DNA of 1,384 nt from Escherichia coli (GCF_003334815.1 NZ_QOWO01000098.1); one strand, 5' to 3'. Counted from the stretch's first letter, positions 1-1,384 are shown. Numbers and translations are program-made. Notes: generated by a model from the letters alone, not told the origin.

Positions 1-43
1 GTATACAATCAGGAGAATAGGTAAAATCCATAATACTATAGCT

Positions 44-82
44 AAAAAAATATATACGGGGATCAGGCGTCTGTATGCCCGT
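44..82 (-). terminator. Weak candidate intrinsic terminator downstream of the FinO-like CDS
   Basis: On the minus-strand RNA, a short GC-containing stem (ACGGG 82-78 pairing with CCCGU 60-56; 5 bp around a 17-nt loop) is followed by AUAUAUUUUUUU (complement of 55-44). The stem is short, the loop is large, and the site lies about 105 nt past the stop codon, so confidence is low. Confidence 0.2.
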
Positions 83-187
83 TCATGTTTATTCAGGATG
101 AATAAAATCTTCTCCGCTTCTGAATCACACATAACATTCTCTTCCCATTTTTTCTGATACGTAATGTCCACCTGTTATCAGGAGTGT

Positions 188-790
188 TTATTGCCCAGAA
201 ATATTCTCCTGCTGTGCCTGCATCCTGAGCCACTTTTGTTCTAATGTCGCCAGTCTGCGACCGGCACTCTGTGCTTCAGAGTCTGAGACCTGCCCTTTGG
301 GGTGACCATCCAGGCCATAACGTGGGACGCCGGCGACAGCTGTCCGCTGCAGATATACGCGGCGGGATGTGATGCAGGACACTGCACAGAGCCATTCGTC
401 CATGGTCAGTTCTGTCTCCGGGTGTTCTGCCAGAAATGCTGAAATATCATTGTTTATGCCAATTTTCAGGGGAATAAATCCACCACCTTCAGCACGAAGA
501 TGAGGAAACAGGGCCTTTATTTTTTCCACGCACTCGTGAGTATACTCACGGGTCCAGTGGGAGGGACGTGGAAAACGGTGTCTTTTCTTTTTCTTCTTCC
601 TGGCTGGCGCTTCGGGGATATGTGTTTCGACGGCAGATGAATTTATTCCGGCGGGGGCTGATTCTGCCGTCTGTTCAGTAAATACAGGTGCGATAATATC
701 TGTTTTTTCGGATAAGGACGGTGGCGAAAAAGTACGACGTTTTTTCACCACAATGACGGGAGTTTTCCTTTCTTCCTGATTTTTTCCCAT
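188..790 (-). CDS. ProQ/FinO-family RNA-binding protein (FinO-domain RNA chaperone) with a basic N-terminal extension
   Basis: Complete 200-aa ORF with ATG start (complement of 788-790) and TAA stop (complement of 188-190). An in-frame stop lies just upstream (812-814 on the minus strand), so this is the first available start. A GAGG Shine-Dalgarno (complement of 796-799) sits 5 nt upstream of the ATG. The C-terminal region (about residues 86-190, roughly nt 221-535) carries motifs I recall as conserved in ProQ N-terminal domain and FinO: F-P-x-L, PLKIGI, T-S-x-x-x-YL, and G-x-x-R-Y-G-L-DG-x-P-x-G-x-V. The N-terminal ~85 residues are low-complexity and basic, including KKKKKRHR (nt 575-598), resembling the FinO N-terminal region. 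Family assignment is from memory of conserved motifs, not from a search. Confidence 0.85.
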   Translation of the reverse strand: MGKNQEERKTPVIVVKKRRTFSPPSLSEKTDIIAPVFTEQTAESAPAGINSSAVETHIPEAPARKKKKKRHRFPRPSHWTREYTHECVEKIKALFPHLRAEGGGFIPLKIGINNDISAFLAEHPETELTMDEWLCAVSCITSRRVYLQRTAVAGVPRYGLDGHPKGQVSDSEAQSAGRRLATLEQKWLRMQAQQENISGQ

Positions 791-795
791 AAATA

Positions 796-799
796 CCTC
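796..799 (-). promoter_or_regulatory. Shine-Dalgarno / ribosome-binding site (GAGG) for the FinO-like CDS
   Basis: The minus strand reads CGAGGTATTT-ATG; the GAGG core is 5 nt upstream of the start codon at 790. Confidence 0.5.
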
Positions 800-821
800 G
801 GCTGGCTGGTTTTACTCTTTA

Positions 822-849
822 ATAATATCACAATTCATAAATTAGTAAA
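822..849 (-). promoter_or_regulatory. Candidate sigma70-type promoter for the FinO-like gene (minus-strand -10 TATTAT at 822-827, -35-like TTTACT at 844-849)
   Basis: Read on the minus strand, TATTAT matches TATAAT at 5 of 6 and TTTACT matches TTGACA at 4 of 6, with a 16-nt spacer. The predicted start would be around 814-815, giving a short leader that includes the GAGG ribosome-binding site. Weak and unverified. Confidence 0.2.
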
Positions 850-1074
850 TTTCCCATCAGGTGATTTTTCATGGCTAATAAGTCCGTTCTCTGAGTATTT
901 ATACTCGAGGTAGTAACAGTTATGGCGTGACAGTCGAATTGATATTCTACTGAACCCTGACAGAAACATGGTTGATATATTCTCTCACTTTAATGTTGTC
1001 ATGATATAAATAAAAACAATTCATTTGAAAGGATATCAGAAGAAGATATCGGGGCGCACAGTTCATCTCTGCCT

Positions 1075-1102
1075 TTGTTTCATGGGGTGTTCTTTGTATA
1101 TT
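1075..1102 (+). promoter_or_regulatory. Candidate sigma70-type promoter for the plus-strand ORF (-35 TTGTTT 1075-1080, 16-nt spacer, -10 TATATT 1097-1102)
   Basis: The -10 hexamer matches TATAAT at 5 of 6 positions; the -35 is weak (TTG only); spacing is 16 nt. The predicted transcription start would be around 1109-1110, about 35 nt upstream of the ATG. An alternative is an extended -10-like TGnTATAAA at 1002-1010. This is pattern matching only. Confidence 0.25.
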
Positions 1103-1127
1103 TTACTTACTGTTTAAGCATGTACAT

Positions 1128-1133
1128 AAGGAG
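1128..1133 (+). promoter_or_regulatory. Shine-Dalgarno / ribosome-binding site (AAGGAG) for the plus-strand ORF starting at 1144
   Basis: Perfect AAGGAG core, 10 nt upstream of the ATG at 1144. Confidence 0.55.
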
Positions 1134-1143
1134 TGCTTTCATT

Positions 1144-1384
1144 ATGCCAATGATACTTGTAAAGAAGAATCCCCGGGGCAAAGTGATTCGGGAGCTTAGC
1201 AGTGAGGAAGAGACTGCAGTAAAGACGGTCTGTGGACTGAAAAAGCCAGCAACCATGGCACTACATAACCTGGCCAATGATATTCTCCGGGAAATGCGTG
1301 AGTATGATGCATGGTTACAGTGTGACTGTATTCCGGGAGATTCGCCGGCCATGAATTTTGCTGCTCTTAAAAACAATACGGGTA
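1144..1384 (+). CDS. Hypothetical protein, 5' end only (continues beyond the window); function not recognised
   Basis: ATG at 1144 is preceded by AAGGAG (1128-1133) with a 10-nt spacer. The frame stays open for 80 codons to the window edge: MPMILVKKNPRGKVIRELSSEEETAVKTVCGLKKPATMALHNLANDILREMREYDAWLQCDCIPGDSPAMNFAALKNNTG. Composition is balanced and protein-like, unlike the overlapping antisense ORF. It was absent from the supplied ORF track, presumably because it has no stop in the window. An in-frame ATG at 1120 is an alternative start, but the Shine-Dalgarno is positioned for 1144. Confidence 0.55.
   Translation, partial: MPMILVKKNPRGKVIRELSSEEETAVKTVCGLKKPATMALHNLANDILREMREYDAWLQCDCIPGDSPAMNFAALKNNTG

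Follow-up and report, generated by a model that had tools for sequence, protein, structure and literature searches.

FinO/ProQ-family proteins and the locus under study

The closest described counterpart of the locus analyzed here is fopA, formerly yafB, which lies between yafA and yagA on plasmid pCol1B9 of Salmonella strain SL1344 and whose product forms a separate branch within the FinO/ProQ family (Gerovac et al., RNA 2020, PMC7491321). Inc, an antisense RNA, and the leader of repZ are both bound by FopA at about 1 uM; the protein makes Inc–repZ pairing about sevenfold faster and shields Inc from RNase, and it helps Inc to repress repZ and holds down plasmid replication (PMC7491321), an effect that has been summed up as copy-number control in a review (PMC9977716). 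A figure legend in the original study describes the FopA protein as strongly raised late in stationary phase as well as under SPI-2-inducing conditions (PMC7491321).

The window analyzed in this study is a stretch of 1,384 nt from Escherichia coli (GCF_003334815.1, NZ_QOWO01000098.1). An earlier note, made from the sequence alone, had described it as a FinO-like CDS in sharp compositional contrast to very AT-rich, non-coding flanks and had taken this contrast as support for an accessory or mobile origin. The gene content, plasmid context, base composition and promoter organization of the window were compared with those of pCol1B9, related plasmids and the E. coli K-12 core chromosome.

The window is part of the backbone of I-complex conjugative plasmids

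The window is identical to pCol1B9 of Salmonella Typhimurium SL1344 at 1381 out of 1384 bases, and dozens of plasmids from E. coli and Salmonella contain it at 100% identity. Among 5426 complete E. coli genomes, the locus was found in 1067, and plasmids hold 1175 out of the 1197 places at which it occurs; the other 22 places are chromosomal and are possibly integrated plasmids or assembly artefacts. A total of 1476 plasmids in PLSDB match the locus (1368 of them conjugative), including plasmids of Salmonella, Shigella, and Klebsiella, and the typing given by PLSDB for five carrier plasmids is IncI-gamma/K1 or IncK2/Z, MOBP and MPF_I. Plasmid pEc631_1 (IncK2/Z), which contains the window at 100% identity, carries the tra, pil, shufflon, and excA genes of the I type. 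The gene order yafA-fopA-yagA, with RepA/RepZ located 3–5 kb away, is shared by pCol1B9 and pEc631_1 and the order agrees with the published description (PMC7491321); the Inc RNA is encoded outside the window. The window is thus backbone DNA of the I-complex conjugative plasmids (IncI1/I-gamma/K/Z; MOBP, MPF_I), which gives a name to the mobile element that the earlier note had proposed in general terms, and the variable presence that it had suggested as a check is evident among the E. coli genomes. Conserved core synteny together with a genome-average composition, which would have spoken for a core locus, was not what was found, and the conclusion of a mobile origin stands.

Codon usage, the other check that had been suggested, agrees with this placement. 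The GC content at third codon positions (GC3) of fopA is 45.8% compared with 56.3 ± 3.5% in K-12 core genes (z = −3.0), and the log-likelihood of its synonymous codons under a model of the core genes (−1.223) is below that of all 42 core genes and within what is typical for plasmid genes (−1.161 ± 0.109). The synonymous-codon usage of fopA is therefore atypical for the host core, and the composition of its synonymous sites does point to a non-core origin.

Two further observations were made on related plasmids. A fopA homologue with approximately 81% nucleotide identity is located at positions 2487–3095 of NZ_CP024248.1, an IncF multi-replicon plasmid typed as non-mobilizable, near a gene for an A24 prepilin peptidase; it may represent leftover I-type plasmid DNA in another replicon, away from an Inc/repZ partner. 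In pEc631_1, a phosphoethanolamine transferase gene adjoins an IS5-like ISKpn26 transposase gene (47653–50112) and may be a determinant of the mobile colistin-resistance type, a matter unrelated to the question of composition.

The fopA gene and its product

The only long ORF of the window runs on the minus strand from position 790 to 188, a strand assignment that the earlier note did not give, and encodes a protein of 200 amino acids. Residues 84–186 match Pfam family PF04352 (model positions 4–102 of 109, E = 2.4e-12, 47.2 bits), which bears out the description as a FinO-like CDS, and the closest solved structure is the N-terminal domain of E. coli ProQ (PDB 5nb9, E = 1.5e-5). The protein is identical to FopA of pCol1B9_SL1344 at 199 out of 200 positions without gaps (P23 in the window, L23 in SL1344), and the gene is accordingly referred to as fopA (= yafB), encoding a FinO/ProQ-domain RNA chaperone; the chaperone function is taken from the literature for the protein that is one residue apart from the one encoded here. 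Its scores against the NCBIfam models for FinO (NF010317, 25.7 bits) and for the ProQ equivalog (NF003434, 24.5 bits) are far below the curated cut-offs of 136 and 127 bits, respectively. Judged by these profiles, FopA is classified as a member of the FinO/ProQ family, yet as neither FinO nor ProQ.

The transcription start sites mapped by Cappable-seq on pCol1B9 (PMC10268837 Table S1) include none inside fopA (188–790). Terminator-like sites within the fopA CDS were rejected as artefacts of a tract of Lys codons and of coding sequence. Two such hits on the plus strand (559–618 and 581–598) are the complement of the Lys run KKKKK (codons 65–69) and are most likely false positives.

Base composition of the window

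The contrast between fopA and its flanks is real and is half as sharp as had been stated. The hand-counted GC values of the earlier note were accurate for the stretches chosen (28.3% for 1–60, 58.3% for 241–300, and 23.3% for 811–870), but these stretches are extremes of the profile and do not represent their segments. Analysis in 60-nt bins and over whole segments confirmed that the CDS is richer in GC than the flanks: the complete fopA CDS (188–790, minus strand) has a GC content of 49.9% and the flanks 35.2% (Fisher p = 6e-7 for the whole segments), a difference of approximately 15 rather than 30 percentage points. By segment, the GC content is 36.4% for 1–187, 34.6% for 791–1143 and 46.9% for the 5′ part of yagA (1144–1384). 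The same contrast is repeated in seven diverged homologous loci. The flanks are non-coding only in part, as bases 1–132 belong to the yafA coding sequence and 791–1143 are intergenic.

Within the CDS, 60-nt bins range from 36.7% GC (at about 421–490) to 65% (311–370). The Arg/Ala/Gly/Pro-rich C-terminal half of the FinO domain is encoded by the GC-richest part (211–420, minus strand), where 60-nt windows have 57–63% GC. A 60-mer with 58% GC is unremarkable, since 60-mers with at least 58% GC make up 21% of the windows in a stretch of the K-12 core and 27% on the carrier plasmid. A compositional split inside fopA, which might have indicated a chimeric gene, was rejected because the 3′ and 5′ halves (52.6% and 47.2% GC) do not differ significantly (p = 0.19).

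The GC content of the fopA CDS is at the average of host and plasmid: pEc631_1 has 51.4% GC overall, and its coding sequences, ranked by GC content, have fopA at the 34th percentile. In a stretch of 50 kb of the K-12 core chromosome, coding DNA has 52.8% GC and non-coding DNA 44.2%, and intergenic regions of at least 100 nt range from 35.0% to 51.6%. The low end of that range includes the regions between aroP and pdhR (35.0%, with a minimum of 18.3% in a 60-mer) and between gcd and hpt (35.6%). Because promoter regions of core genes in K-12 also reach approximately 35% GC, the contrast alone is no sign of horizontal transfer; the earlier note was right about the origin of the locus, but AT-rich flanks are insufficient as an argument for it. 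The fopA–yagA region is itself slightly below the lowest of the 18 intergenic regions in the K-12 sample.

The divergent fopA–yagA promoter region

The intergenic region between the divergent fopA and yagA genes (791–1143, 353 nt) is the third most AT-rich among the 38 intergenic regions of pEc631_1, which have a mean GC content of 47%. The start sites on pCol1B9 were taken from a Cappable-seq study of SL1344 in mid-log LB (Middlemiss et al. 2023, PMC10268837 Table S1) and transferred to the window by subtracting an offset of 5525; they describe a near-identical plasmid in Salmonella, a host other than that of the window, under one growth condition. The sites that fall in the window are 16(+), 28(−), 35(+), 130(−), 813–815(−), 821(−), 1018(+), 1109(+), and 1311(+), of which those at 813–815, 821, 1018, and 1109 correspond to pCol1B9 positions 6338–6340 and 6346 (both −), 6543 (+), and 6634 (+).

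The start sites of fopA at 815–813 and 821 (minus strand), with a leader of 23–25 nt that contains a GAGG Shine–Dalgarno sequence, are preceded by a predicted promoter (813–849, minus strand) with a −35 element TTTACT (849–844), a 16-nt spacer and an extended −10 element TGaTATTAT (hexamer 827–822). A consensus scan predicted this promoter independently (849–822, minus strand), and the start expected from it, at approximately 815, is the mapped one. On the plus strand, a distal yagA promoter (1002–1018) has an extended −10 element TGaTATAAA (1002–1010), a start at 1018 and a 126-nt leader, and a proximal one (1095–1109) has −10-like sequences TATATT/ATATTT (1097–1103), a start at 1109 and a 35-nt leader. 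The yagA gene, of which the 5′ part lies in the window (1144–1384, plus strand), encodes 448 amino acids in full, has a GC content of 47.6% and is annotated as 'protein YagA'; searches of YagA against Pfam and NCBIfam gave no significant hit.

The AT-richest patches of the intergenic region (811–870 and 961–1050) are located upstream of the start sites of fopA and of the distal yagA start, respectively, and the 45 nt upstream of these starts contain 22–24% GC. The −35/extended −10 core of the fopA promoter is kept in seven loci with 81–100% identity, and the 100 nt upstream have a GC content of 27–34% in all of them. This AT-richness persists even where the DNA beyond position ~853 is replaced by another gene. 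In a subset of IncI-gamma/K1 plasmids, homology ends at 847–853, which coincides exactly with the −35 edge of the fopA promoter, and a hypothetical gene takes the place of yagA and the colicin genes.

Predicted folds of the 126-nt yagA leader and of the fopA leader were no better than those of shuffled sequences (z = 0.71 and 0.64) and gave no evidence for a riboswitch or structured leader. With a cut-off of E ≤ 1, an Rfam search of the window gave a single chance-level match, to tpke11 (17.8 bits, E = 0.97; gathering score 43). The 126-nt leader of yagA contains a candidate TTG-initiated ORF of 30 codons (1025–1117, plus strand).

The yafA side of the window

The left flank contains the 5′ part of yafA (1–132, minus strand, 35.6% GC), whose first 44 codons lie in the window and which continues beyond its left edge. 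The translation, MCDSEAEKILFILNKHERAYRRLIPVYIFLAIVLWILPILLIVY, agrees with the N-terminus of an annotated hypothetical protein of 164 amino acids on pCol1B9 and includes the hydrophobic helix or segment IPVYIFLAIVLWILPILLIVY. The GC content of the full-length yafA gene is 37.8% and that of the next ORF 38.2% (together approximately 760 nt), and the 28% GC of bases 1–60 results from the Ile/Leu/Phe/Tyr codons of this AT-rich gene. Pfam and NCBIfam searches assigned neither YafA nor the product of the next ORF to a family.

A spacer of 55 nt (133–187, minus strand) separates fopA from yafA. A terminator scan found none on the minus strand of the spacer, and the fold of positions 120–200 on that strand was no better than those of shuffled sequences (z = 0.35). 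As the spacer lacks a convincing terminator, co-transcription of fopA and yafA is likely.

It is ambiguous where yafA starts. The annotated ATG (132–130) contains the Cappable-seq start site at 130, and an in-frame GTG at 171 would give YafA 13 extra residues (MDITYQKKWEENV). The Cappable-seq table also flags a divergent (bidirectional) pair at 28(−)/35(+) within yafA; together with 16(+), these sites are all within the stretch of 28% GC and look like promoter-like intragenic sites in AT-rich coding DNA. In pEc631_1, yafA is reduced to an ORF of 74 amino acids and 651 nt (2913–3563) are unannotated, so that pEc631_1 and pCol1B9 differ in the DNA beyond the window's left edge.

Most probable explanation of the contrast

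The contrast is most probably ordinary, a reading to which we assign a probability of roughly 0.9: a known I-complex backbone in which a CDS of average composition is placed between the AT-rich yafA gene and AT-rich promoters. The window, located a few kb away from the replicon, comprises the 5′ end of yafA, fopA, the divergent promoter region and the 5′ end of yagA, and the contrast can be divided into three ordinary parts. The first is the CDS of average composition, in which the amino acids encoded by the C-terminal half make the DNA locally rich in GC; the second is the downstream, AT-rich yafA gene (38% GC), which encodes a hydrophobic protein; and the third is the 353-nt upstream region, in which the two AT-richest patches correspond to the extended −10 promoters (sigma-70) of fopA and yagA. 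The AT-richness of these patches would be maintained for promoter function. By analogy with the published work, the encoded FopA would bind Inc, speed its pairing with the repZ leader approximately sevenfold and thereby restrain replication.

Two points count against this explanation. The fopA–yagA region is at the AT-rich extreme, third lowest of the 38 regions on the plasmid and under the lowest of the 18 from K-12, so that more than promoter composition may be involved. Furthermore, the start sites come from a near-identical Salmonella plasmid under one condition.

Alternative explanations

A possible but less probable alternative, which is compatible with the ordinary reading, is that the AT-rich flanks are recombination junctions at which the yafA and the yagA–colicin modules have been swapped around a conserved cassette of fopA and its core promoter. 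Among 40 plasmid matches sampled at even spacing, ends of homology recur on the left side (42–63, 165, and 209) and on the right side (847–853, in 6 out of 40). Beyond position ~853, pMB9698_2 and a Klebsiella plasmid contain a different, co-directional gene of 350 amino acids with the promoter core kept, and the truncation of yafA in pEc631_1 also agrees with exchange on the left. With recurrent end-points and a retained promoter core, fopA and its core promoter would therefore act as a conserved unit whose neighbours can be exchanged. However, both of the examined plasmids with the junction at 853 have the same replacement, which may reflect the inheritance of a single event and not a hotspot, and breakpoints obtained by megablast are approximate. 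A repeat search of the window found short matches of chance size only and no notable inverted repeats, and neither recombination sites nor repeats at the junctions.

The earlier note had associated AT-rich flanks with silencing by H-NS. According to this explanation, which we consider unlikely, the flanks are nucleation sites for H-NS/StpA, the locus is silenced during exponential growth, and relief of silencing in stationary phase or under SPI-2-like conditions accounts for the pattern of FopA. H-NS prefers AT-rich DNA, and such an expression pattern is common to many H-NS-repressed genes. The AT-richness of the 353-nt region and of the ~760 nt of yafA and the next ORF (34.6% and 38% GC, against approximately 52% for host coding DNA) agrees with this explanation, as does the higher FopA level described in the figure legend for late stationary phase and SPI-2-inducing conditions (PMC7491321); that rise is compatible with control by H-NS or sigma-S and demonstrates neither. 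Over the locus as a whole, the GC content is mixed (35–38% in the flanks, 49.9% in fopA, 47.6% in yagA). Several findings argue against silencing. Equally AT-rich promoter regions, down to 35%, are found between K-12 core genes. The high-affinity H-NS motif TCGATAAATT is not enriched, with 2 matches (at 2 mismatches) against 2.24 expected from shuffled sequences, and start sites of both fopA and yagA, which are start sites and not expression levels, were detected in mid-log LB on the near-identical pCol1B9. A search of a paper library for the IncI1/pCol1B9 family found no data on H-NS occupancy or hns dependence. Finally, pEc631_1 (51.4% GC) carries psiB and has no annotated hns gene; by the scheme of PMC12826799 we would place it in the PsiB class rather than in the AT-rich, hns-encoding class, a placement that is ours and not that of the paper.

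More speculative still, the AT-rich fopA promoter might act as a sensor of H-NS, StpA, Fis or sigma-S that ties copy number to growth phase or host background. If so, it would represent, through FopA and Inc/repZ, an undescribed regulatory input to the copy-number control of I-complex plasmids.

The weakest alternative, a sampling artefact of three hand-picked 60-mers without real compositional structure, draws on the choice of stretches near the extremes and on the 36.7% stretch inside a CDS with a mean of 49.9%, but it is refuted by the highly significant whole-segment test (49.9% against 35.2%, p = 6e-7) and by the recurrence of the contrast in the seven diverged loci.

Significance and comparison with known systems

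The fopA gene, the function of FopA and the plasmid family have all been published, and the gain of this analysis is in the corrections: the element now has a name, most of the left flank is coding, and the contrast, half as pronounced as described, does not by itself mark horizontal transfer. I-complex plasmids rank among the main carriers of ESBL and AmpC genes, and the regulation of fopA is for that reason of some practical relevance, although nothing found here goes beyond the literature.

The locus is most similar to fopA of pCol1B9, with which it shares the neighbours yafA and yagA, the kind of plasmid and the intergenic DNA (3 differences in 1384 nt). The FinO protein of F-like plasmids and the chromosomal ProQ have the FinO/ProQ domain (PF04352) in common with FopA. 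The likeness to FinO extends to the role as a plasmid-borne antisense-RNA chaperone, which for FopA is known from the literature, whereas the targets differ: Inc/repZ in replication control for FopA and FinP/traJ in conjugation for FinO. As presented in the review (PMC9977716), PcnR of IncI2 plasmids (PMC8053102) is another plasmid-encoded protein of the FinO family; it reduces the copy number of its plasmid, and the review places it near FopA in the phylogeny. In contrast to FopA, PcnR reportedly binds the repR leader directly and independently of an antisense RNA (PMC8053102, cited in PMC9977716). The H-NS-silenced islands (Navarre 2006; Lucchini 2006) resemble the locus in their mobile origin and in a GC content of the flanks at least 15 percentage points under the host average. 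Unlike in those islands, the AT-rich DNA consists here of a few hundred bases of promoter region and a small AT-rich gene, the central gene has a host-like GC content and the start sites are active in mid-log phase.
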